Part shown: positions 3,670-17,306 of the stretch, piece by piece
How the letters are laid out: every line of letters starts with the position of its first letter
Numbering within the stretch: the first letter of the stretch is position 1
Source: Candidatus Enterousia sp.
Lineage (GTDB): Bacteria; Pseudomonadota; Alphaproteobacteria; Rs-D84
Assembly (NCBI GenBank): GCA_045613925.1
Contig: JAZLBV010000006.1
Location: forward strand, 19,224 to 83,223
DNA: 64,000 nt
Reading direction: 5' to 3'
Made by a program: the position numbers and the translations under genes
Notes under the pieces: generated by a model
What the model saw: only the letters and a program-made list of their open reading frames with translations
What the model was told of the DNA's origin: nothing
Database searches by the model: none

Positions 3670-5727
3670 TTATTTTACAGTTAATTCTTTGCCGTGAACG
3701 TCAACATCAACGGTTGAACCTTCGCCTATGGCACCAGATAATATCAAATCAGCGATTTTATCTTCCACAGCGGTTGTAATTAAACGCTTTAGTGGACGTG
3801 CGCCAAAGACTGCATCATATCCATTATCGCCCAACCATTTAATTGCCGCATCAGACACATGCATTGATATTTGTCGTTCGCCTAACCGTTTTTCTAATAT
3901 CTTCAATTGGATTTTTACTATGTCCCCCATAACATCTTTGCCCAATTGATTAAAGAATACTATTTCGTCGATTCGGTTGATAAATTCAGGTCTGAATTGT
4001 TTTTTCACTGCATCCATAGATGGCAAATTACTTGTCATTATGATAATAGTATTTGTGAAATTTACTATGCGACCCTGACCATCTGTTAATCGACCGTCAT
4101 CCAATATCTGTAAAAAGACATTAAATACATCTGGATATGCCTTTTCAATTTCATCAAACAATAAAACCTGATATGGTCTGCGACGTACAGATTCTGTCAA
4201 TTCCCCACCTGATTCATATCCCACGTATCCCGGAGGTGCCCCAATTAAACGCGCAACTGAATGCGGTTCCATATATTCAGACATATCTATACGTGTCATT
4301 GCTGTATCATCGTTAAACAAATATTGCGCCAAGGCTTTTGCTACCTCTGTCTTGCCAACGCCGGTAGGCCCCAAGAACATAAAAGAACCAGATGGACGAT
4401 GCGGATCAGACAACCCAGCACGCGAACGACGGATAGCGCGCGCAACAACTGACAATGCGTGATCTTGACCAACAACACGCTTACGAAGTTCGTCTTCGAT
4501 GTTTAATAATTTGGATTGTTCTTCAATCGACAATCTGTCTGCTGGAACCCCAGTCCATTTACTTACCACTGCCGCGATATGTTCTGGCAACACAGTTTTA
4601 TATTCTTTGGATTCGGTATTTTGTTTTTTGATTTTTTCTTCTAATTCTGGGATTTTACCGTATTGCAAAGCTGATGCTTTTTCATAATCCCCATTACGCA
4701 TAGCGATTGCAACTTCTGCCCGTGCTGCATCCAAAGCCGCCATAGAATCGGAAAGTCCGCGCATTTTTTCTTGTTCGTCTTTCCATTCGGCTGTCATTTT
4801 ATCGGATTCGTTTTGCAGTTTCGCAATTAAAGATTCCAAATCTTTTAACCGTTTTTGGGATTCGGTATCTTTTTCTTTTTTCAATGCCTGTTGTTCTATT
4901 TTTAATTGCATTAAATGACGATCTAATTCATCCAATTTTTCCGGCTTAGACGCTATTTCAATACGAACACGCGCAGCAGCTTCATCAATTAAATCAATTG
5001 CTTTGTCTGGTAAAAATCTGTCTGTGATATAACGATTAGACAATTTAACTGCCGCAACCAGCGCAGCATCCGCAATACGAACACCGTGATGTCCTTCGTA
5101 TTTATCTTTTAAACCACGCAATATGGATATAGTATCTTCAACCGTCGGTTCGTCCACATATACAGGTTGAAAACGACGTGCCAATGCAGGATCTTTTTCA
5201 ATATACTGACGATATTCATCTAAAGTTGTTGCACCTACACAATGTAATTCTCCGCGTGCCAACATAGGTTTTAATAAATTGCCAGCATCCATAGAACCTT
5301 CACCTTTACCTGCACCAACCATAGTATGCAATTCATCTATGAATAAAATAATTTCACCGTTTGAATCTTTAACAGCTTTAAGAATCGCTTTAAGACGTCC
5401 TTCGAATTGGCCACGAAACATTGCACCTGCCATCAAAGCGCCCATATCCAACGACAACAATTTTTTATTTAATAAATTCTCTGGCATATCACCAGATACA
5501 ATCCGCTGGGCCAAACCTTCTACTATAGCAGTTTTACCAACCCCAGGATTTCCAATTAACACAGGATTATTCTTGGTGCGACGTGACAAAACCTGAATCG
5601 TTCTGCGAATTTCTTCTTCACGTCCGATAACAGGGTCTAATTTTCCGTCTGCCGCCAATTTTGTAAAATCTGTTGTATATTTTTCAATTGCCTGTTGCGG
5701 TGTTTCTTGAACTTCTTCTGGATTCAT
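3670..5727 (-). CDS. clpB: ClpB-type AAA+ disaggregase lacking the N-terminal domain
   Basis: Two AAA+ modules ([18 protein letters not shown]; [17 protein letters not shown]) flank a coiled-coil middle region. The likely start is MNPEEVQ at 5727. The first Walker A begins about 60 aa from that start. Confidence 0.85.
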
Positions 5728-5893
5728 TTTTGATTCCTTTTTGATTTGTTTTTTCTTGTGCTTTTTATATAGTCGCATTTTTTTTAAATTCAAGCCATCG
5801 GACAATAAACCCAACAGATTCAAATTATAAATTGTATTGCGCAAATTTCTTTTTTAGTCTAGAATCAAAGGGAATATAATCAAAAGGTCTACA

Positions 5894-7342
5894 ATGATTT
5901 TTTCAGACAAAGATATTAAACAAATAAAAAACCACGGATTAAGCCTGGATGAAGTTAACGCACAAATAGAAAACTTTAATACAGGTTTTCCTGTTTTAGA
6001 TATTGTAAAACCTGCAGTTGCAGGCGATGGTGTCATACGGTGTACCCCGTTGGATTGTGAAAGATATATTGATACATATGAAAAATATGCTTTGTCTCAT
6101 AAAATTGTGAAATTTGTTCCTGCGTCTGGGGCTGCGACACGTATGTTCAAAGATTTGTTCGATTTTATCGCAACAAATATGCCAAATACGGTATCCAGAA
6201 TGACCGCAAATAATATTACAAAGTTCGCTTTTTGGGATGATTTAAAACAATATTTGCCGCAAAATGCATCTGATATGAATATCGCAGAATGTATTGTGAC
6301 CGCTTCAGGACTAAATTACGGCAATTATCCAAAAGGTCTTATCAAATTCCATAAATACCCAGAATATACAAGAACCCCTGTCGAAGAGCATCTTGACGAA
6401 GGCGCACAATACGCGATGTCTGGACGATCTGTGAATATTCATTTCACTATATCCCCAGAATATAGGGCTGGGTTCGAAGCTTTAATCAACAGCGTAATTC
6501 CGCAATATGAATCCAAATATGGTATGAAATACAACGTATCATTGTCAGAACAAAAATCATCTACGGATACAATTGCACTTCAAATGGATAAAAAACCGTT
6601 CAGAAACCCGGATGGCTCTTTGTTGTTCAGACCTGCGGGACATGGGGCTTTGATTGAAAATCTTAATGAAATTGATGCAGATTTGGTATTTATAAAAAAT
6701 ATTGATAATGTGATAATTGAACCTTTGCGTGGCGATACAATAAAACATAAAAAAATGTTGGCGGGGATGCTGGTTGACGTTCAAAAACAAATCTTTGATT
6801 TTGTTTCATATATAGATTCCGGCATAAATGTTGATACGGACAGAATCCATAATTTCATTGTCAATAATATCGGAATAAAATTAAAGAATAAATTGTCTTT
6901 GGGTGAATATAGAAATATTTTAAATCGCCCATTACGTGTTTGTGGCATGGTGAAAAATACTGGCGCACCAGGCGGTGGCCCGTTCTGGGTTCGTGAAAAT
7001 AATGATGTTATTAGTTTGCAGATTCTTGAATCCAGTCAAATTCCCAAAGATTCTAAAAACATGATGGACAGTGCTGAATATTTTAATCCTGTGGATTTAG
7101 TATGCGGCATCAAAGATTTCAGAAATGGAAAATTTAATCTTGCAGATTTCATTGATGGCAAGGCTGGTTTTATATCTGAAAAATCCAGAAACGGTATCGC
7201 GTTATTGGCAATGGAAAAACCGGGTTTGTGGAACGGTGCAATGGCAAAATGGAACACTATATTTGTAGAGGTTCCTGCTGATACATTTACGCCAGTAAAG
7301 GTTGTAACTGATTTATTATTGCCACCACATCAACCAAAATAA
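5894..7342 (+). CDS. DUF4301-like / UDP-sugar pyrophosphorylase-related protein
   Basis: 482 aa. KFVPASGAATRMFKDLF and RPAGHGALIENLN are reminiscent of UDPGP-type nucleotidyltransferases. The family assignment is from memory only. Confidence 0.4.
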   Translation: MIFSDKDIKQIKNHGLSLDEVNAQIENFNTGFPVLDIVKPAVAGDGVIRCTPLDCERYIDTYEKYALSHKIVKFVPASGAATRMFKDLFDFIATNMPNTVSRMTANNITKFAFWDDLKQYLPQNASDMNIAECIVTASGLNYGNYPKGLIKFHKYPEYTRTPVEEHLDEGAQYAMSGRSVNIHFTISPEYRAGFEALINSVIPQYESKYGMKYNVSLSEQKSSTDTIALQMDKKPFRNPDGSLLFRPAGHGALIENLNEIDADLVFIKNIDNVIIEPLRGDTIKHKKMLAGMLVDVQKQIFDFVSYIDSGINVDTDRIHNFIVNNIGIKLKNKLSLGEYRNILNRPLRVCGMVKNTGAPGGGPFWVRENNDVISLQILESSQIPKDSKNMMDSAEYFNPVDLVCGIKDFRNGKFNLADFIDGKAGFISEKSRNGIALLAMEKPGLWNGAMAKWNTIFVEVPADTFTPVKVVTDLLLPPHQPK

Positions 7343-7418
7343 TGCAAAAATAAAATCAGGACTTGACTTTTTACAATTTATATTATAAATTATTGCCCAG
7401 TAATTAAAGGATTTAGAT

Positions 7419-7793
7419 ATGCCTCGTGTATGTAAAGTAACTGGAAAAAAAACAATGGTAGGAATGAACGTTTCGCATTCTGAACGTCATACGAAGCGCA
7501 CATTTTTGCCAAATTTACAAAAATTATCCTTCCACAGTGATGCTTTGGCACGCGATTTCAGTTTGCGTATTTCGACTGCTGGGTTGCGTACATTGACAAA
7601 GCACGGTGGATTGGATGAATATGTTATGTCAAAACCTATATCGCGTTTGACACCTGAAATGGCTGCAATTAAGAAGGCCATTGAAAAGAAACAAGGCAAA
7701 GCTGCAAAACCTGCAAAAAAACCGGTTCATAAACCGACACGCAGTGCACGCCTTGTCAAAAAGGTTGAATCCAAGAAAGCGGCCGCTAAATAA
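7419..7793 (+). CDS. rpmB: 50S ribosomal protein L28 with Lys/Ala-rich C-terminal extension
   Basis: MPRVCKVTGKKTMVGMNVSHSERHTKRTFLPNLQ is the L28 core. About 45 extra K/A-rich residues follow at the C-terminus. Confidence 0.9.
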   Translation: MPRVCKVTGKKTMVGMNVSHSERHTKRTFLPNLQKLSFHSDALARDFSLRISTAGLRTLTKHGGLDEYVMSKPISRLTPEMAAIKKAIEKKQGKAAKPAKKPVHKPTRSARLVKKVESKKAAAK

Positions 7794-7815
7794 TCTGGCT
7801 GTTTGATTGTGTCCT

Positions 7816-7900
7816 GGCTCTGTGGCGGAACTGGTAGACGCGCTTGACTCAAAATCAAGTTCTGCAAGGAGTATCGGTTCGATTCCGATCAGAGCCACCA
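7816..7900 (+). tRNA. tRNA-Leu (anticodon CAA)
   Basis: GGCTCTG acceptor stem pairs with CAGAGCC. Anticodon loop is CUCAAAA. It has a long variable arm, a TTCGATT T-loop and an encoded CCA. Confidence 0.95.
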
Positions 7901-7908
7901 AAAATAAA

Positions 7909-7930
7909 ATGCCCTTTTGGGCATTTTTTG
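7909..7930 (+). terminator. intrinsic terminator
   Basis: atgccc-tttt-gggcat hairpin followed by a T-run after tRNA-Leu. Confidence 0.7.
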
Positions 7931-8035
7931 TTTTTCAAGTATCTTCTTTACCGTAATTATTTCAATTTATTAAAATAACATTGATTTTTGCGCACACTGT
8001 AATACACTGTCAAATAACCAAACAAAGGATTTTCA

Positions 8036-8599
8036 ATGAATTTTATCAAAACAGATATAGATGGTGTTGTTATTATTGAACCAAGAATATTTCCTGATTC
8101 GCGTGGATATTTTTTTGAAAGCTATAACGAACAAGAATTTATAAAAAACGGTATTCCGAATCGCTTTGTCCAAGATAACCAATCAAAATCATCATACGGT
8201 GTTGTGCGTGGTTTGCATTGCCAATTAGTTGCACAAGCCCAGGCTAAATTAGTTCGCGTATTGCAGGGCAAAGTTTTAGACGTCGCAGTTGATGTTCGCA
8301 AAGGTTCCCCAACCTTTGGAAAACACGTTGCCGTTGAATTATCCGACGAGAATATGCGACAATTGTTTATACCACGCGATTTTCTGCACGGATTTTCCGT
8401 TTTAAGCGACACCGCTGTTTTCGCCTATAAGGTAGACAATTTTTATAACAAAGAATCAGAATTTGGAATTCGTTATAATGACCCTGAAATCAATGTAAAT
8501 TGGCGTGTTCCTGTGAACAAAATAATAACGTCAGACAAAGACAGAATCGCAAATAGTTTGCAGGATTTGATAATAAAAAACTATCAATTTGAAAAATAG
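8036..8599 (+). CDS. rfbC: dTDP-4-dehydrorhamnose 3,5-epimerase
   Basis: DGVVIIEPRIFPDSRGYFFESYN ... VRGLHCQ ... GKVLDVAVDVRKGSPTFG is the RmlC cupin signature. Confidence 0.85.
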   Translation: MNFIKTDIDGVVIIEPRIFPDSRGYFFESYNEQEFIKNGIPNRFVQDNQSKSSYGVVRGLHCQLVAQAQAKLVRVLQGKVLDVAVDVRKGSPTFGKHVAVELSDENMRQLFIPRDFLHGFSVLSDTAVFAYKVDNFYNKESEFGIRYNDPEINVNWRVPVNKIITSDKDRIANSLQDLIIKNYQFEK

Positions 8600-8610
8600 G
8601 AAAAAAATAT

Positions 8611-8639
8611 TTGTAAAATCAATAAAAAACAGCTATAAC
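8611..8639 (+). promoter_or_regulatory. candidate sigma70 promoter for the TR-containing RNA
   Basis: TTGTAA (8611-8616), a 17-nt spacer, then TATAAC (8634-8639), immediately after the rfbC stop. Confidence 0.4.
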
Positions 8640-8645
8640 ACTTAT

Positions 8646-9100
8646 AAGGCAACAAAGTTTCCACGCCAAAACGTGGAAAAGGTCGCATTGTCGTACAGTT
8701 GTGTGTAGCGGTTTACGAGGCAGTTTTCTTGCGGTTTCGTTGTGGGTGTTCAACAACTCGAACAGCTCTACGTCCGAATGTGCGTCGAATTGCACGAACA
8801 ACTGTGGCAACAACGTCCAGAACAACTCGGACTTTCGCGCCGGCCTCTTCGGCTCTGTCGCTCCTTTGAAGGTGATAACTTTGACCAAAGGACAAAGTTT
8901 GGCTAACCTGCAGGACAAAGTGTAGATATAGACACTTTTCGGGTGTCAAGAAAACGACATCTGTTTTAAGGCCTTTCACATCAAAGGCGGGACGGTGTGA
9001 CCTGTCTTAACAAGACGAATACAAAACGCAGGGGATGTCTGGACTAGTAGTTTGCTCTGTATCACGACGAACGTCCTGGATATCCGATTAAACAAAGGAC
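8646..9100 (+). ncRNA. candidate DGR template RNA (TR plus structured spacer)
   Basis: About 450 nt that is markedly GC-richer than its surroundings, with no convincing CDS. Hairpins at 8658-8679 (tttccacg/cgtggaaa), about 8931-8947 (gacac/gtgtc) and ccttt/aaagg near 8970-8985. It lies directly upstream of ORF108 and the RT. Confidence 0.5.
8701..8870 (+). other. template-repeat (TR)-like segment; AAC-rich core at 8752-8826
   Basis: In the open frame starting at 8701, codons 18-42 hold 9 AAC and 1 AAT (FNNSNSSTSECASNCTNNCGNNVQNNSDFRAGL). The true boundaries cannot be set without a VR. Confidence 0.55.
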
Positions 9101-9104
9101 AAAT

Positions 9105-9431
9105 ATGACACTGGATGAAATTAAGCAATTAAACGAAAAAAATTATCCTAAATTTTCTTCGTTTGCAAAGAATCAGATGCCTATGCCCGGGAATAAAAAA
9201 CATCTGGATGATGTTTTAAACCGTGAAATCACGATTATCGATTACAGAATGCGACGTTCGACAAAACGTGATGGCACAGAGTGTCTGCAACTACAATTTA
9301 TACTGGATAACGAGGTTTGTGTTTTATTTACAGGCTCAAGTGTATTGACTAATCAAATCAAAGAAAGCAAAGATAATATCCCGTTTGTGACAACGATTGT
9401 TAAAATCGACAGATATTACTCTTTCTCTTAG
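9105..9431 (+). CDS. DGR-associated accessory protein, not Avd-like
   Basis: 108 aa with an AAAGGA RBS. The sequence looks beta-strand-rich (ITIIDYRM, CLQLQFILDNEVCVLFTG, FVTTIVKIDRYYSF). It sits between the TR-like RNA and the RT. Confidence 0.6.
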   Translation: MTLDEIKQLNEKNYPKFSSFAKNQMPMPGNKKHLDDVLNREITIIDYRMRRSTKRDGTECLQLQFILDNEVCVLFTGSSVLTNQIKESKDNIPFVTTIVKIDRYYSFS

Positions 9432-9451
9432 AACCAGTATAAAATTGTGTT

Positions 9452-10486
9452 ATGAAGACATATAAAAATCTTTGGGATAAATTTATCTCGAAAGAAAACT
9501 TTGATTTAGCAGCAAAGAAAGCGATAAAAAGTAAAAAATCTAAGAAATCAGTAAGGTTCTTTTTAAGAAATCGTGAAAAATTCTTAGAAAAATTACGAAA
9601 ATCTTTAATAAATGGCACTTTTAAAACATCGCCATATAAAACTTTTGTTATTTATGAGCCCAAAAGGCGAATAATTTACAAATTACCGCTTTATCCAGAC
9701 CACGTGTTGCATCACGCGCTTATCAATGTTCTGGGGCCGATTTGGCAAAGCTTCTTTATCAAAGACTCTTTTTCGTGCATTCCAGGGCGTGGTTTGTTGT
9801 ATGCTTCACGCCGTACGATGCGGTTTATCAAACGAAACAAATATGTTTTGCAATGTGATATTCGGAAATTTTATCCTTCCATAGATCATACTGTTATTAT
9901 GGATATAATCGCACATAAAATCCATGACAGACGCATGTTAAAAATATTAAATGAAGTCATCTGCTCTGTGGGTGGGCAAACTAATTTGCCGATTGGTAAT
10001 CTCACATCTCAGTGGTTGGGTAACGTTTATATGAATGAACTTGACCATTTTATAAAACAAGATTTACATTGGCGCGATTATATCAGATATTGTGATGATT
10101 TTTGTCTTTATGGGAATAACAAACAAGATTTGCACGATGCGGCTCAAAAAATAAAAACATTCGTCAGAGAACGACTAAAAATGGAATTTTCTAAATGCAA
10201 CCTGCGCAGGACATCAAACGGTGTTACCTTCATAGGATACAGGCATTTCAGAAAATTTATATTACTGCGTCATCTTACTGCGTGTAAATTACGCAGACGA
10301 ATCGTAAACATAATCGTGCACAGCGACTTCAGTGATCGTTCTGTTGCTCAATTGGCATCAGCATATGGATGGACCAAGTGGTGCAACAGTTATCATTTTC
10401 GAAAAACAATTCAGGTATTTGCGCGCAAAATTTCGCGGAAAGCTGGCGCTTTTATAAAAAGCAACCTTTTTTTTGACAAAAAATGA
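9452..10486 (+). CDS. DGR-type reverse transcriptase
   Basis: NLWDKFISKENFDLAAKKA, YEPKRRIIYKLPLYPDHVLHHAL, DIRKFYPSIDH, LPIGNLTSQWLGNVYMNELDHF, YIRYCDDF and FIGYR. It is colinear with Bordetella phage BPP-1 Brt as I recall it. Confidence 0.85.
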   Translation: MKTYKNLWDKFISKENFDLAAKKAIKSKKSKKSVRFFLRNREKFLEKLRKSLINGTFKTSPYKTFVIYEPKRRIIYKLPLYPDHVLHHALINVLGPIWQSFFIKDSFSCIPGRGLLYASRRTMRFIKRNKYVLQCDIRKFYPSIDHTVIMDIIAHKIHDRRMLKILNEVICSVGGQTNLPIGNLTSQWLGNVYMNELDHFIKQDLHWRDYIRYCDDFCLYGNNKQDLHDAAQKIKTFVRERLKMEFSKCNLRRTSNGVTFIGYRHFRKFILLRHLTACKLRRRIVNIIVHSDFSDRSVAQLASAYGWTKWCNSYHFRKTIQVFARKISRKAGAFIKSNLFFDKK

Positions 10487-12013: not shown

Positions 12014-13051
12014 ATGAAAAGACTGTTAAGTGTTTCAATGTTTGCGATTGTTGCCGCGGCACCTGTTATGGCGCGCGCTGACAAAACAATAACATCGCTT
12101 GAATTGCAAAATGGTGGGAACGTTCCCGCTTCGACCCAGGTTGCAACAACATCATATGTTAAGGGTGCATACAACGCGGTTGCAAATGCGGTCAATGCTG
12201 TGGTCACAGATATGACTGTTGCAGACGGCGAATATACCCACATTAACCCAAACAAAAGCGTTGCTGAAAACTTGGTATTATTGAACAATGCAATTAACAG
12301 TGCGGGCACCACATCAAGCAGCACATATACAACCAAAGAATCTGCAGCTGCATCTTTAGCGACTGGCGCGGATACATTACATTACGTCAGTGCAGATGGC
12401 GAAAAGGTTGGCGCAAACCTTGGTGCATTGGACAAAGCTGTTTATGATAACGAAACTGCAATCGGGTTATTGAATTCTGGCGACACAGTCGAAGGTTCTG
12501 TTGCATATGCGGTTAAAGGCGAAGAAACCCGTGCAATGGCGGCAGAAACAGCGTTAAGCGATCGTATTGGAACATTGGATACGAATAAAAATTATTTACG
12601 GACTACAAACGACGTCTATACAAATATGACTGCGCTTGACACCCAGGTTCACAATAATGAATTAAGCATTGGTTCTTTAAGTTCGTTAAGCTCTGCTGGC
12701 AGTATGAACACAATTGAAAGTCGTGCAACATTGGTATCTGCAATCAATACATTGGATGCTGCGATTTCCAGCGCGGGAACTGCATCTAATGTGACGACCG
12801 GACACTATATCGGAACAGCAAACGGAAAAACATCTGTTTCTGCTAATTTAACGGCTTTGGATAACGAAGTCTATGATATTAACACCAACAAAATTGGTTC
12901 AGTTGATATGGGTACGACTGCAACAACCGTTACTGGCGCAATCAAGGAAATGCACGATCAACAGATTGAGGTTGCGACCACTTGGAACAGCAGTACTACT
13001 CAAAAGATTAATTTATTCCCAACTGCATCTGGCGATGACGATGGCGAATAA
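12014..13051 (+). CDS. secreted fibre-like surface protein paralog
   Basis: Signal peptide. VATTSYVKGAYNAVANAVNAV motif. The NLxALDxxV..N...IG motif occurs 4-5 times. Confidence 0.65.
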   Translation: MKRLLSVSMFAIVAAAPVMARADKTITSLELQNGGNVPASTQVATTSYVKGAYNAVANAVNAVVTDMTVADGEYTHINPNKSVAENLVLLNNAINSAGTTSSSTYTTKESAAASLATGADTLHYVSADGEKVGANLGALDKAVYDNETAIGLLNSGDTVEGSVAYAVKGEETRAMAAETALSDRIGTLDTNKNYLRTTNDVYTNMTALDTQVHNNELSIGSLSSLSSAGSMNTIESRATLVSAINTLDAAISSAGTASNVTTGHYIGTANGKTSVSANLTALDNEVYDINTNKIGSVDMGTTATTVTGAIKEMHDQQIEVATTWNSSTTQKINLFPTASGDDDGE

Positions 13052-13071
13052 TCTTTTGTAAAAGAAATAAA

Positions 13072-13103
13072 AAACCGATTCGTTCAACCGAGTCGGTTTT
13101 TTT
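13072..13103. terminator. intrinsic terminator hairpin
   Basis: aaccgattcg-ttcaac-cgagtcggtt flanked by an A-run and a T-run. Confidence 0.65.
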
Positions 13104-13343
13104 ATACATGAAAAAAAATTAAGCACCAATCTCTGTTTTTGATTCGCGGAACACAGCATATTCTGCCCCTTGGGGAAGTGGCACGTAGTGCCGAAGGGTG
13201 TTCACCGAATTGCGAATACACCGGAACACCCCACTCCGGCTGCGCCCACCCCCAACCATAAAAAACATACGAAAAAAAATAAAAAGTCAAGAGAAAATTT
13301 TCATAAAAAAATGTTTGACAAGCGTAAAAACACCCTTTTTTTG

Positions 13344-13352
13344 TGATATAAT
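13344..13352 (+). promoter_or_regulatory. extended -10 promoter element (TGATATAAT)
   Basis: Lies within cacccttttttTGTGATATAAT, about 55 nt upstream of the 13407 start. Confidence 0.45.
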
Positions 13353-13406
13353 ATGGTTATAAAATTGCTTAGCTTAGGGACGGCTATTTAAATGAGAGAG
13401 AAAACA

Positions 13407-14036
13407 ATGAAAAAATTATTAGGTATTTCTATCGTCGCTATGTTAGCCGTCACACCTATGATGGCAAACGCAGCGCAGACGGCTGCTAATTTAGCGGCAA
13501 CATCTGGTACCGAACAAAATGCTATTGCAACAACATCGTATGTTAAGGGTGCCTATAACGCAGTAAAAGCAGCGCACGATGCCGTTGTTTCCGATATTAC
13601 TGTTGGCAGTGGCACACATTATCATATTACAGCTGGCAACAGTGTTGCTGAAAATTTGGGAGAATTAGATACAGCAGTTCACCAAAATGATGAGAAAATT
13701 GGTACTATAACAACTTTACAGAGCAGCACCACATTTGGTCAGGACGAAGACCACAGCGACGTCGTTAATGCAATCATCAGTACAAAAACACAAGCTAACG
13801 CGACAGATGCTTTGGTTGGCAGTTCTGCATCATCATTGACAACCGAATTTGGTTCAGGTGTTGACACTGTTGATAAGGCTTTGAAAAAATTGAAAGAAGG
13901 GCTTGGTGCAACAGATAGCAAAGGCGTTGTTGTTTATAATGGTTGGAATGGCGGTGGCACACCAAATGGTAATGGTTGGGTCGGTTTGACAGCAGAACCT
14001 CAACAAACTGGTAGTGGTGAACAAACTGGTAACTAA
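13407..14036 (+). CDS. secreted fibre-like surface protein paralog
   Basis: The start at MKKLLGISIVAMLAVTPMMANA was chosen by identity with the 14434 paralog. IATTSYVKGAYNAVKAAHDAV motif. Gly/Asn/Trp-rich C-terminus. Confidence 0.65.
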   Translation: MKKLLGISIVAMLAVTPMMANAAQTAANLAATSGTEQNAIATTSYVKGAYNAVKAAHDAVVSDITVGSGTHYHITAGNSVAENLGELDTAVHQNDEKIGTITTLQSSTTFGQDEDHSDVVNAIISTKTQANATDALVGSSASSLTTEFGSGVDTVDKALKKLKEGLGATDSKGVVVYNGWNGGGTPNGNGWVGLTAEPQQTGSGEQTGN

Positions 14037-14057
14037 TCATTTAGATACAAATTTAAA

Positions 14058-14081
14058 ACGACCCATTTGGGTCGTTTTTTT
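14058..14081 (+). terminator. intrinsic terminator
   Basis: acgaccca-tt-tgggtcgt hairpin followed by a T-run. Confidence 0.7.
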
Positions 14082-14370
14082 GTTGTACCTGGCTTTGAAT
14101 CCTGTCCAAAAGAAAAAGCATCGGTATTTGTTTCTATTTTGCGATGCACCGCAACACAAAAACCAAACCAAAGTGCTTTATAATTAGAAACGAAATGCGT
14201 TTTATTGTCGCAGGGCTGGAAATAAAAAACAAAAATTTCTTTTCGTCGCGCACGCGGGTTCAACCAAGAAAAATCCCATAAAAAAACCGTCAGAAAATAA
14301 AAAAAATATAAAAGTCAAGAGAAAAATTTCATAAAACAACATTTGGCATTGGACTAAATCATAAAAATTA

Positions 14371-14379
14371 TGTTATAAT
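14371..14379 (+). promoter_or_regulatory. extended -10 promoter element (TGTTATAAT)
   Basis: A TGnTATAAT about 55 nt upstream of the 14434 start. Confidence 0.45.
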
Positions 14380-14433
14380 GTCAGAGTAAAAAATACTTGG
14401 CTTAGGGACGGCTATAAAAATGAGAGAAAAACA

Positions 14434-15543
14434 ATGAAGAAATTATTAGGTGTTTCTATCGTCGCGATGCTAGCCGTCACGCCTATGATGGCACACGCCG
14501 TGGGAAGTGCCCCAACGGCGGCGACCACATCGTCCGAACCATATTTGGGGGTTGATGTTGCGACGACTGACCAGGGTCATATTGCATCTACTGCGTATGT
14601 CAAGGGTGCGTATAACGCCGCGATTGGCGCAGTTAACGCGGTTTCAGCTGCAAAACAAAATAATTTGATGAACAACGCAGCAAGCCCTGTTGCCGTATCT
14701 AGCACTGTTAAGACAAGTGTTGGCGCTGCGACTGGTGAAAACGCTGCAGACAATACATCATTGGTAACTGAAAAGGCCGTCCGTGATGCGATTGATGCAA
14801 TTGAGGGCGCCGATGCAATCACAGCAGGTCCAGGTGTTAGCAAAACAAACAACAAGATTTCTGTAGATTTAACATCAAACGGCGGTTTGCAGACAACTGG
14901 TGAGGGTGATGCCGCTACATTGGGTGTAAAGGTTAACACTGGCACTATGGAAGTTGGCGCAGACGGTGTCGGAATCAAAGCCGGCGGTGTGGGCACAACG
15001 CAATTGGCAGATAACGCAGTGACAACTGCTAAGATTCTTGACGCAAATGTTACAGCTAATAAATTAGCAACAGATTCTGTAACGACCGCGAAAATCGCCG
15101 ATGGTAATGTTACAACTGCTAAGTTGGATGCAAGTGCCGTAACAACTGCGAAAATCGCTGACGCAAATGTAACGACTGGTAAGTTGGCGGATAGTGCTGT
15201 AGAAACAGCAAAAATCGCTAATGGGGCTGTGACATATAGCAAGTTGGATTCAGACTTGGTTCAAACTTCAGTTCGTTCATCGGTGGATAGTAATGCCGAA
15301 GGTTATAGTGCTTGGAATTCTGATCAAACTGTCGCATCTGAAAAAGCGGTCGCGACTGCGATTTCTACGGCTACAACAGGTATGGCGACACAAACTGGTG
15401 TGAATTCTGCTATTGCAGCGTCCAGCGTTTCTGTAACATCTGCAACTGTGGATGTCTATAACGCTTGGGGTGCAGAAACTACAACCCCTGTTAATGCCAA
15501 TGTGACCGTAGACTTTACAGCGGGTACATATCCAAATAATTAA
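14434..15543 (+). CDS. secreted fibre-like surface protein paralog with 11-residue tandem repeats
   Basis: Signal peptide MKKLLGVSIVAMLAVTPMMAHA. IASTAYVKGAYNAAIGAVNAV motif. About 8 copies of an xxVTTAKIADxN-type repeat. Confidence 0.7.
   Translation: MKKLLGVSIVAMLAVTPMMAHAVGSAPTAATTSSEPYLGVDVATTDQGHIASTAYVKGAYNAAIGAVNAVSAAKQNNLMNNAASPVAVSSTVKTSVGAATGENAADNTSLVTEKAVRDAIDAIEGADAITAGPGVSKTNNKISVDLTSNGGLQTTGEGDAATLGVKVNTGTMEVGADGVGIKAGGVGTTQLADNAVTTAKILDANVTANKLATDSVTTAKIADGNVTTAKLDASAVTTAKIADANVTTGKLADSAVETAKIANGAVTYSKLDSDLVQTSVRSSVDSNAEGYSAWNSDQTVASEKAVATAISTATTGMATQTGVNSAIAASSVSVTSATVDVYNAWGAETTTPVNANVTVDFTAGTYPNN
14983..15252 (+). repeat. in-frame 33-bp tandem repeats (about 8 units) encoding (A/N)VTTAK(I/L)ADxN
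   Basis: GVGTTQLADNAVTTAKILDANVTANKLATDSVTTAKIADGNVTTAKLDASAVTTAKIADANVTTGKLADSAVETAKIANGAVTYSKLD. Confidence 0.8.
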
Positions 15544-15553
15544 CATAAAATTT

Positions 15554-15598
15554 GGTCTGGACAATTATGTTGTATTCGTATAACATAATTGTCAGACC
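15554..15598. repeat. long imperfect inverted repeat (about 17-bp arms)
   Basis: ggtctggacaattatgtt ... aacataattgtcagacc between two paralogs. No T-run follows it. Confidence 0.6.
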
Positions 15599-15651
15599 GG
15601 GTGGGAAAGGAAAAAATTCAATCTTTATCAAAAAAAATTAATAAAAATTAC

Positions 15652-16224
15652 ATGAAAAAACTTTTATTCATTTTTCTTGGTTCGATCTTAGTTACACCTG
15701 CGTTCGCATTGGGCGAAGAGCAGGAAACGCCGGCAATTACTCAGTTTATAAGCCCGACGACTGCAAGCGTCCAGGATTCTGCATCTGTGTCTGCAAACGC
15801 GCCTAAGTATGATTTGAATACTATTACTACAACCGACCAGGAACATATTGCGTCGGCTGCGTATGTTAAGGGCGCACACAACAGCGCACTTTCCGCTATC
15901 AATTATTTACAGGGTTCTAAACAGGCGCAATTGGTTAATGATGCCGCGTCGCCTGCTAATGTTTCCAATACAGTGAAAACAACGTTGGGAACAACATCCA
16001 CCGCCAGTGATACTGCGTTGGCATCCGAGTTAGCGGTGGCGACTGCGTTGTCTGAGAAACAGGCCACATTGTCAAGCACCAATGTTACAACATCTGGTAC
16101 GGGCGCTGTTGTTACAGGCGTCAGTGCATCCGGTGGTAATGTTACGGTTACAACGGGTCAGGTCACGATTCCGGTGGGCAGTGTTTCGTCGCCTACATCC
16201 CAGGCACAAATTTGGGTACAATAG
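15652..16224 (+). CDS. secreted fibre-like surface protein paralog
   Basis: Likely start MKKLLFIFLGSILVTPAFA. IASAAYVKGAHNSALSAINYL motif. Ser/Thr/Val-rich C-terminus. Confidence 0.6.
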   Translation: MKKLLFIFLGSILVTPAFALGEEQETPAITQFISPTTASVQDSASVSANAPKYDLNTITTTDQEHIASAAYVKGAHNSALSAINYLQGSKQAQLVNDAASPANVSNTVKTTLGTTSTASDTALASELAVATALSEKQATLSSTNVTTSGTGAVVTGVSASGGNVTVTTGQVTIPVGSVSSPTSQAQIWVQ

Positions 16225-16272: not shown

Positions 16273-16385
16273 ATGGTTTGGTTTCAAAAAGTTAAAAAAT
16301 CAATGATAAATTCCACAGAATCATCCATACCTGTTGTATATTTTATCTTGATTTTTTACGATGTTTATGCGCTATAATATTGACA

Positions 16386-17306
16386 ATGAAAATAGAAAAT
16401 TTTGATTTTTTGAAAGTATCTCCGTATGTATCAGATAAAAAAGAGTATTTTGAAGTAAATACTCTTGTGAAATTTGTTGATGCCAGTTATGGCAATTGGA
16501 AAATTACTGATAAGTTTAACGATAAAGGATACAATGGTAATATATATAGGGTGGTAAACAAACGGGGAGTTAAAGGATTGCTAAAACTGCCCCGTATAAG
16601 ATCAATAGATAATGAAAAGACTAGTAAGCAAAACCTGATTACAGAAATAAAAAATTTACTATTACTAACTGGCCACCCTAATATTCAATTGATACTTGAC
16701 AGCGATATAGCTGAAAATAATCCGTTTCTTGTTTACGAAGAAATTGTTGGTTCTACGCTAGACAAAATTGTAAAAAACAAACCAATTGAACCCCAAAAAG
16801 CTATTCTGGCAACAATTAACTTATTGGATACACTGCAATTTTGTCACAGTCAAAACATAGTGCACAGAGATATTAAACCAGATAATATTATTTGCAGAAA
16901 CGATGATATCAACGATATGGTCTTGATAGATTTTGGTTTATCAACAACGGCGAATTCTTCATCTGAAAAAGACTGGAATCGTATATGTTGCAACAGGAGT
17001 ATTGCTCTACCTGAATTATTTTTAGGTACGAACTAGTCAGATCCGCGCTCTGATATTTCATATGTATGCTGCGGGGTGTTATTTTATATGTTATATGGCT
17101 TTTTGCCAAGAATAATGACCGATGGTATGGGTATGTTGCCCACGACAGTAGAACAGGCACGCACAATACATAACAACTGGTCCCCCAGAATACAAGAACC
17201 CATTATGAATTTTTTTAGAAAAGCCTATTATCCAAATATCGACCAACGTTATCAGAATATTAAAGAAGCGCAAAGCGAATTGAAAAACATATTAAAACTG
17301 TTTTGA
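16386..17306 (+). pseudogene. Ser/Thr protein kinase interrupted by a single in-frame TAG (17034-17036)
   Basis: HRDIKPDNII catalytic loop and IDFGLS (DFG motif). ORFs 16380..17036 and 17076..17306 share one reading frame. Subdomain IX (SDISYVCCGVLFYMLYGFLP) continues after the stop. Confidence 0.7.

Follow-up and report, generated by a model that had tools for sequence, protein, structure and literature searches.

Positions 8655 to 10486 of the 64-kb stretch of Candidatus Enterousia sp. DNA studied here (contig JAZLBV010000006.1; the whole stretch is referred to below as the window) very probably form an intact diversity-generating retroelement (DGR) cassette that is separated from its target genes. 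The cassette comprises a leader, a template repeat (TR), a spacer RNA, a 108-aa open reading frame (ORF) and a reverse transcriptase (RT). In a preliminary description of this DNA, an AAC-rich segment was read as a DGR TR whose cognate variable repeat (VR) is remote or lost. The template reading is borne out by the homology of the segment to TRs of related bacteria, by an adjoining DGR-clade RT, which starts 590 nt downstream of the TR and was not mentioned in that description, and by a covarying spacer RNA. With respect to the target, the remote alternative is favored by the existence of a target-less lineage, by a TR/VR pair divided between two contigs of one metagenomic sample, by near-cognate VRs and by signatures of selection, while the lost alternative is retained as an unlikely one.

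The segment is a genuine DGR template repeat. The named relatives are uncultured Alphaproteobacteria of ruminant guts, and in several of them (loci L007, L010/L011, L012/L013, and L023) the canonical order of target gene with VR, TR, spacer, small ORF, and RT is observed. In these canonical relatives the TR/VR repeats have a length of 130-137 nt and a spacing of 290-500 nt. In every relative the VR occupies the final ~45 codons of a protein with a signal peptide (...CWC...WVF...CxxxCxxxC...FRxGxFG, followed by the stop codon). The mismatches between the two copies fall at adenines of the RT-proximal copy in 14/16 cases in L007, 10/10 in L010, 15/15 in L012, and 16/16 in L013; differences without such a bias had been named in the preliminary description as evidence that would speak against a DGR, and the relatives' pairs are instead biased to TR adenines. 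The window segment aligns with the TRs of these relatives from '...TGGGTGTTCAACAAC' through '...GTCGC', and beyond the TR end it takes in both the 'TCCTTTG' that is specific to TRs and the box 'CCTGYRGRACAAAGTG', which is invariant. The homology to TR/VR pairs places the bounds of the repeat at ~8727/8731-8861, which replaces the extent of 8701-8870 proposed earlier.

The composition of the segment corresponds to the design of a DGR template. Direct reading gives the same count as was reported previously for codons 18-42 of the frame from 8701 (positions 8752-8826), namely 9 AAC and 1 AAT in 25 codons: AAC AAC TCG AAC AGC TCT ACG TCC GAA TGT GCG TCG AAT TGC ACG, continued by AAC AAC TGT GGC AAC AAC GTC CAG AAC AAC. 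Ten AAY codons is the unique maximum among the 127,852 25-codon segments in the six frames (mean 1.45, sd 1.23), and the GC content of the TR segment is 54.8%, compared with 37.6% for the whole window. The preliminary description had argued that AAY enrichment allows adenine mutagenesis without the creation of stop codons, and this design is confirmed by the positions of the adenines, 26 of the 27 being located at codon positions 1-2 of the VR frame. Zero stop codons are reachable by adenine-only substitution of the TR, and its 16 variable codons give access to 2.95e15 peptides. The TR peptide shows a four-residue period (C-A-S-N / C-T-N-N / C-G-N-N / V-Q-N-N). The A-free 29-nt end of the TR is presumed to be the homing segment, similar to the initiation of mutagenic homing (IMH) site. 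Pseudo-ORFs equivalent to the open frame across the TR are present in relatives as the predicted proteins P0121 and P0122.

The RT belongs to the DGR clade. Its best match in PDB is 8ub7_A (328 aa, E 4.5e-43), to which it aligns end to end (2-315 vs 3-314) with the motifs IGSLTSQ/IGNLTSQ and YMDD/YCDD in register; the sequence of 8ub7_A, together with residues D215/D216, matches the active site of the Bordetella DGR RT (bRT) described in a cryo-EM preprint. The match of the window RT to phrog_1423 has a value of 3e-94, 2,188 homologs are found at E<=1e-20, and the IGNLTSQ and YCDD motifs are invariant in the 120 closest of them. The window RT is identical to P0001, encoded on an NCBI contig of 103,586 bp. 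Instead of a DGR template, the segment could be proposed to be a small gene for an Asn-rich protein, or a GC island that is AAC-rich by chance and neighbors an unrelated RT, given that ORF 8701-8925 exists and that the RT has sub-threshold matches to models of group II intron, retron, and defense-associated (DRT) reverse transcriptases. However, these matches remain far under the NCBIfam cut-offs (TIGR04416, 103.7 vs 300; retron St85, 70.6 vs 235; Drt3a, 56.9 vs 200), group II intron and retron RTs match the window RT at E 3e-18 or weaker, and the best structural relative is a DGR RT. In addition, no intron or retron RNA from Rfam is found within 8500-9500, and the segment aligns to proven TRs and adenine-specific VRs. 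The non-DGR proposal is refuted by the TR/VR pairs of the relatives and keeps a negligible probability.

The spacer between the TR and the small ORF has a consensus fold with 46 predicted pairs, 13 of which show compensatory changes. In its long-range helix, the GTCGC of the TR 3' end and the following TCCTTTG pair with the invariant CAAAGGCGGGAC, and the spacer also holds the box GGCTAACCTGCAGGACAAAGTG and three further hairpins. No Rfam family corresponds to this spacer. By analogy with the Bordetella DGR, it is likely the counterpart of the 'Sp' priming RNA, the role of which is taken here from the cryo-EM preprint. The leader upstream of the TR, which contains a hairpin at 8658-8679 (TTTCCACG-CCAAAA-CGTGGAAA) and the box AGGTCGCATTGTCGTACAGTTGTGTG, probably corresponds either to the 5' portion of the DGR RNA or to its promoter region. 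The coordinates of all components are collected in Table 1.

Table 1. Components of the DGR cassette and associated features in the window
Feature	Coordinates	Strand	Remarks
Leader upstream of TR	8655..8726	+	Conserved in L015, L016, L018, L010, L007, L012
Open frame, 74 codons	8701..8925	+	Accidental ORF across TR, no protein gene; VR reading frame
TR	8727..8861	+	Homologous to TRs of L007, L010, L012 with adenine-specific VR partners; not itself a gene
TR 3' end, A-free, GC-rich (TTTCGCGCCGGCCTCTTCGGCTCTGTCGC)	8833..8861	+	Unchanged between TR and VRs
Structured spacer RNA between TR and small ORF	8862..9104	+	243 nt; family-wide conservation (alignments A1, A4)
108-aa ORF	9105..9431	+	Between spacer and RT in all nine aligned loci (alignment A2)
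DGR-clade RT, 344 aa, IGNLTSQ and YCDD	9452..10486	+	RVT_1; 8ub7; phrog_1423

No VR was detected in the window, in agreement with the earlier statement that the 64 kb hold no VR-like near-copy, and all scans returned just the TR itself. Both strands of the window were covered, in both TR orientations, by ungapped scans that tolerate changes at adenines (L=30-120, at least 55% non-A identity). The window was also searched with the A->N pattern of the TR, allowing 3 mismatches, with blastn (word size 7) and a repeat search for a second TR copy, with tblastn and eight target proteins of relatives for a VR-bearing target, and for the VR 3'-flank signature; each of these searches was negative. These results rule out a VR only over the 8.7 kb upstream and the 55 kb downstream of the TR that the window contains. 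Two further candidates in the window were rejected. The ORF at 15589-16224 was considered as a decayed target, and it has only the N-terminal 'YVKGAYNA' module in common with the targets and no VR-like end. An 'empty site' was also sought, and the genes around the remote VRs of L020, L021, L022, and L028 have no orthologs in the window.

The target-less layout is a trait of the lineage. In the window the TR follows rmlC (8036-8599) after 128 nt, with only the conserved TR leader between them. The same target-less cassette directly after rmlC, in the order clpB-DUF4301-L28-rmlC-TR-ORF-RT, is found at about 75% nucleotide identity in L015 (JGI 3300041893) and L018 (Ga0310696_10001532). The rmlC-leader-TR junction recurs in the window, L015, and L018, which are independent assemblies, with a nucleotide identity of 75-83%, and an adjacent target is missing in all three loci of the sub-lineage for which upstream sequence is available. 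The DGRs of sister gut and rumen Alphaproteobacteria, represented by metagenome-assembled genomes (MAGs; L007/L023 from RGIG2769, L010, and L012 from GCA_017543505.1), share with the window lineage the RT family (65-70% identity), the small ORF, the spacer RNA, the TR design, and the C-terminal module of the target; in contrast to the window lineage, which has rmlC in that place, their target gene lies 290-500 nt upstream of the TR. The window and the cassette are chromosomal, as the window contains six tRNA genes and, at 52-60 kb, ORFs with the size and arrangement of rpoB and rpoC (1368 and 1378 aa).

An artefact of assembly or binning, in which the target would really lie beside the TR and a collapsed or misjoined VR/TR repeat would have created a false rmlC-TR junction, was also considered. 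Short-read contigs of the relatives indeed break in or after the TR: those with the closest RTs begin inside the 3' segment (L001-L005) or just after the TR (L029), as is expected where a diverged second copy exists; and chimeric VR/TR proteins (P0141, P0144) are present in the database. Nevertheless, the repetition of the rmlC-leader-TR junction in the window, L015, and L018, as well as the TR-specific 3' flank (TCCTTTG and spacer) and the unmutated AAC codons, which indicate that the segment is not a hybrid, make such an artefact highly improbable.

The locus L010 (1-11026) and the window (3670-10486) have a housekeeping block in common (rmlC, L28, DUF4301, and clpB), and in L010 a complete DGR with its target is located on the clpB side of this block. 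From the two arrangements it follows that a rearrangement must have separated the cassette and the target. A simple inversion relative to L010, which would place the target left of clpB, was rejected, as no VR or target homolog is found there.

Remote VRs were identified by a metagenome scan with the A-free 3' end common to TR and VR as the query, made degenerate for the window, L015, and L001. Four loci were returned, one of them containing a TR (L018) and the others VRs (L020, L017, and L019). The L018 TR and the L020 VR differ at 12/27 A sites and at 0/104 non-A sites. The L020 VR ends an ORF on another contig of the same sample as L018; within its 33.2-kb contig the TR is located at ~18.2 kb, while the position of the VR is ~63.4 kb in a contig of 141,433 bp (141.4 kb). 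If one replicon carries both, the distance between them is at least ~78 kb. The VRs of L017 and L019 (sample Ga0310690) end two different ORFs and are near-matches of the window TR, and a third near-match, L024 (ENA ERZ28595234), was obtained by a protein search with the L019 target. Compared with window positions 8731-8861, each of these three VRs differs at 14/27 A sites, and at 4, 3, and 4 of the 104 non-A sites in L017, L019, and L024, respectively (Fisher p for the A-site bias 1.6e-8, 4e-9, and 1.6e-8). Almost every non-A difference is a synonymous change at a third codon position, which is the pattern expected of strain-level TR alleles. These near-cognate VRs cover at least two different genes. 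The close relatives show that in this lineage the genes rewritten are those of surface proteins at distant sites in the genome, not neighbors of the cassette.

In three other loci, L021 (RUG13256), L022, and L028, VRs occur that have neither an RT nor a small ORF or TR box in the several kb around them. Two of them, L021 (RUG13256, CADAFS010000013.1) and L022, come from species-representative MAGs that contain a diversified VR and no TR match anywhere in the assembly. They mirror the situation in the window, which suggests that TR and VR are often located on different or missing contigs. The target homolog in L025 has an AT-rich, non-VR 3' end and was not counted as a remote VR.

The cassette also carries the signs of a system maintained by selection. 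Between the window and L018 the TR differs, in the VR frame, by 11 synonymous and 5 non-synonymous codons; the simplest explanation for such coding-like evolution of an untranslated repeat is that selection is exerted by way of a coding VR. Strong purifying selection is also seen on the RT and the small ORF, which have dN/dS of 0.03-0.08 in the target-less lineage. The alternative of an orphaned cassette, in which the VR gene or genes of the source genome are lost or out of register and the TR, ORF, and RT are intact but idle, agrees with the absence of a VR from the 64 kb, with the recovery of nothing but TR pseudo-ORFs when the TR peptide was used for an indexed protein search, and with the misfit of the target homolog P0123 to the window TR at ~5 positions. 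Yet no decay is seen in the RT, ORF, spacer, or TR, the low dN/dS, RT motifs, spacer pairs, and AAY design all being intact; the near-cognate VRs of sister strains show a lineage active on remote targets; and MAG assemblies typically lose hypervariable VRs, the near-cognate ones being found without exception on contigs of <=1.3 kb. We consider an orphaned cassette unlikely.

Several observations weigh against a cassette that acts on remote targets in the source genome. No VR of the source genome itself has been seen, the coverage of that genome being the 64-kb window, and the A->N pattern of the window TR matched nothing in collections of genome, metagenome, and viral contigs. The strict pattern missed even the TR itself in those collections, which shows that the source genome is absent from them. 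The 3' pattern of the lineage likewise had no match in viral contigs. The indexed protein search with the TR-frame peptide yielded only P0121 and P0122, and an exhaustive search of representative proteins gave 112 family-level matches, many of them matching at the C-terminus, that are unscreened for a cognate target. P0123, the closest target homolog found only in NCBI, has a VR that requires ~5 non-adenine amino-acid changes relative to the window TR. The 3-4 non-A differences indicate that the near-cognate VRs come from sister strains and not from the source genome. Finally, L018 and L020 are assigned to one genome because their TR and VR match exactly and come from a single sample, and not on the strength of binning. 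Given the coding-like evolution of the TR and the near-cognate VRs, a remote target is nonetheless much likelier for the source genome than a lost one and is, in our judgment, the probable arrangement; we infer that the source genome itself carries remote VRs.

For a cassette acting on such remote targets, the following sequence of events is proposed. The transcript of TR and spacer would fold with the TR 3' end paired to the spacer, and the RT, probably with the 108-aa protein, would copy the TR into cDNA with misincorporation opposite the 27 adenines. The cDNA would then replace the VR, which makes up the last ~45 codons, in one or several genes for secreted proteins at other chromosomal sites, with homing guided by the A-free GC-rich 3' segment common to TR and VR. 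The outcome would be up to ~3e15 stop-free variants of a Cys-stapled C-terminal module. The details of priming and homing in this scheme are our own reconstruction.

A hexamer, TGATGT, occurs 4-8 nt past every VR end, both in adjacent and in remote VRs, at the place where TRs have TCCTTTG. It is located at L007:8952-8961, L010:8915-8925, L012:9112-9121, L017:255-271, L019:1093-1102, L020:413-426, and L024:881-890, and is also present after the VRs of L021, L022, and L028. It is kept even when it does not provide the stop codon, which is TAA in L017 and an earlier TGA in L020. TGATGT is a possible target-recognition signal. The hairpins predicted 3' of the VRs differ among the loci, with z-scores from +0.2 to -9.

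The fold of the variable domain was addressed with the target P0126 (L024:240-887), the VR of which is reachable from the window TR by adenine changes; its structure was modelled with AlphaFold from a 22-sequence alignment. The pLDDT is mostly >90 over residues 61-212 (block means 85-98), and in the model the VR forms a beta-strand followed by two C-terminal helices. A Foldseek search with the model found nothing significant in PDB (best E 0.58, TM <=0.23) or BFVD (best E 0.09). The profile of the target family matched only an Internalin B repeat among PDB sequences, within the N-terminal module, and Pfam gave only a weak Flg_new match. Judged on the predicted model, the target does not appear to belong to the C-type-lectin or FGE-like fold of the Mtd and TvpA type. 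The resemblance to the RGGSW...GFR framework of C-type lectins suggested in the preliminary description was not sustained, since its 'GLRGSF' (8710-8727) lies outside the repeat and the target model has no C-type-lectin match. Six cysteines are invariant in the target family (alignment A3). The C-x-N-N period is compatible with a helix that carries Cys/Val on one side and the mutable codons on the opposite one, and in the model three of the invariant cysteines may staple the C-terminal helix, with the mutable Asn codons on its solvent face, to the beta-sheet. Two database 'targets' of the same alignment, P0141 and P0144, end in TR-like (NN-rich) or frameshifted sequence; these ends are probably VR/TR assembly chimeras and call for caution in the use of automated DGR target catalogues.

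The 108-aa ORF is conserved as a protein, with 47 invariant columns in its alignment (A2), dN/dS of 0.03-0.19, family sizes of 108-110 aa, and a family pI of 6.6-8.8. Searches of Pfam, NCBIfam, PHROGs, and PDB yielded no match for the ORF, even with a profile and a limit of E<=10, and its single-sequence AlphaFold model, with a pLDDT of 44, is too poor to use. The ORF product is not detectably an Avd, HRDC, MutS-like, or CH1 protein. The accessory protein Avd is common but not universal in DGRs, being present in 74% of them. A 2018 survey (PMC5758913) distinguished four classes of accessory proteins: Avd (basic, pI ~9.5), HRDC, MutS-like, and CH1 (160-169 aa, acidic). By size, charge, and sequence, the 108-aa ORF falls outside all four and is a candidate unclassified DGR accessory protein.

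Downstream of the DGR, at 12014-16224, four paralogous signal-peptide proteins of 345, 214, 369, and 211 aa are encoded, none of them with a VR. The regions upstream of these paralogs are duplicated (13263-13403 and 14291-14431, 84-89% identical), and the N-terminal 'YVKGAYNA' module is common to the paralogs and to the DGR targets of L007 and L012. They are followed at 16380-17036 by a 218-aa ORF with a Ser/Thr protein-kinase-like domain, for which NCBIfam matches are below threshold (best 72.7 bits, PASTA kinase, cut-off 450).

Compared with the DGR of Bordetella phage BPP-1 (mtd-avd-TR-Sp-brt; bRT-Avd-RNA structures 8ub7-8ube), the window cassette has an RT that aligns end to end, an AAC-rich TR, and, in its lineage, a VR formed by the last ~45 codons of the target. 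Unlike the BPP-1 system, it is chromosomal and not phage-borne, it has no adjacent target, it lacks Avd and contains a non-Avd 108-aa ORF between the spacer and the RT, and the VR domain of the lineage's target shows, according to the model, no detectable C-type-lectin fold. Action of DGRs at a distance is already established. In the 2018 survey (Wu et al., PMC5758913), 45/372 DGRs had non-adjacent targets, 10 had targets >100 kb away, and remote targets were tied to non-phage DGRs; two DGRs had no adjacent target at all, both being phage-associated with a target 20 kb away. The window lineage resembles Treponema denticola and other cellular DGRs with remote targets in its action in trans, with at least ~78 kb between L018 and L020 and at least two types of target genes. 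It is distinguished from them by a sub-lineage that keeps no adjacent target and by its host, an uncultured ruminant-gut alphaproteobacterium. The locus can therefore be described as a DGR of the chromosome, in a lineage that works exclusively on targets at a distance.

More tentatively, and with somewhat less than an even chance of being right, the system may represent a distinct DGR variant that acts only in trans on several distant genes, has an unclassified accessory protein of 108-110 aa in place of Avd, and diversifies a variable domain outside the C-type-lectin fold. Annotated VRs were found to be systematically C-type lectin in a 2021 global survey (PMC8144416), and a variable domain of another kind would, if true, break this reported rule. 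According to the same survey, its own method misses DGRs acting on remote targets.

Large metagenomic DGR surveys count only cassettes with a VR beside the RT, and the locus described here provides a clean comparative example of this blind spot: in a whole sub-lineage of gut bacteria, a healthy TR-RT module is detached from its targets, and only searches that mask adenines and extend across contigs can recover these. For annotation, VRs should be sought throughout the genome whenever an RT is accompanied by an 'orphan' GC island rich in AAC, and such an island should not be dismissed. The system also offers a handle on the way in which distant VRs are located by a DGR, the A-free 3' segment common to TR and VR and the conserved TGATGT flank being candidate signals, and on whether folds beyond the C-type lectin can carry DGR hypervariability.

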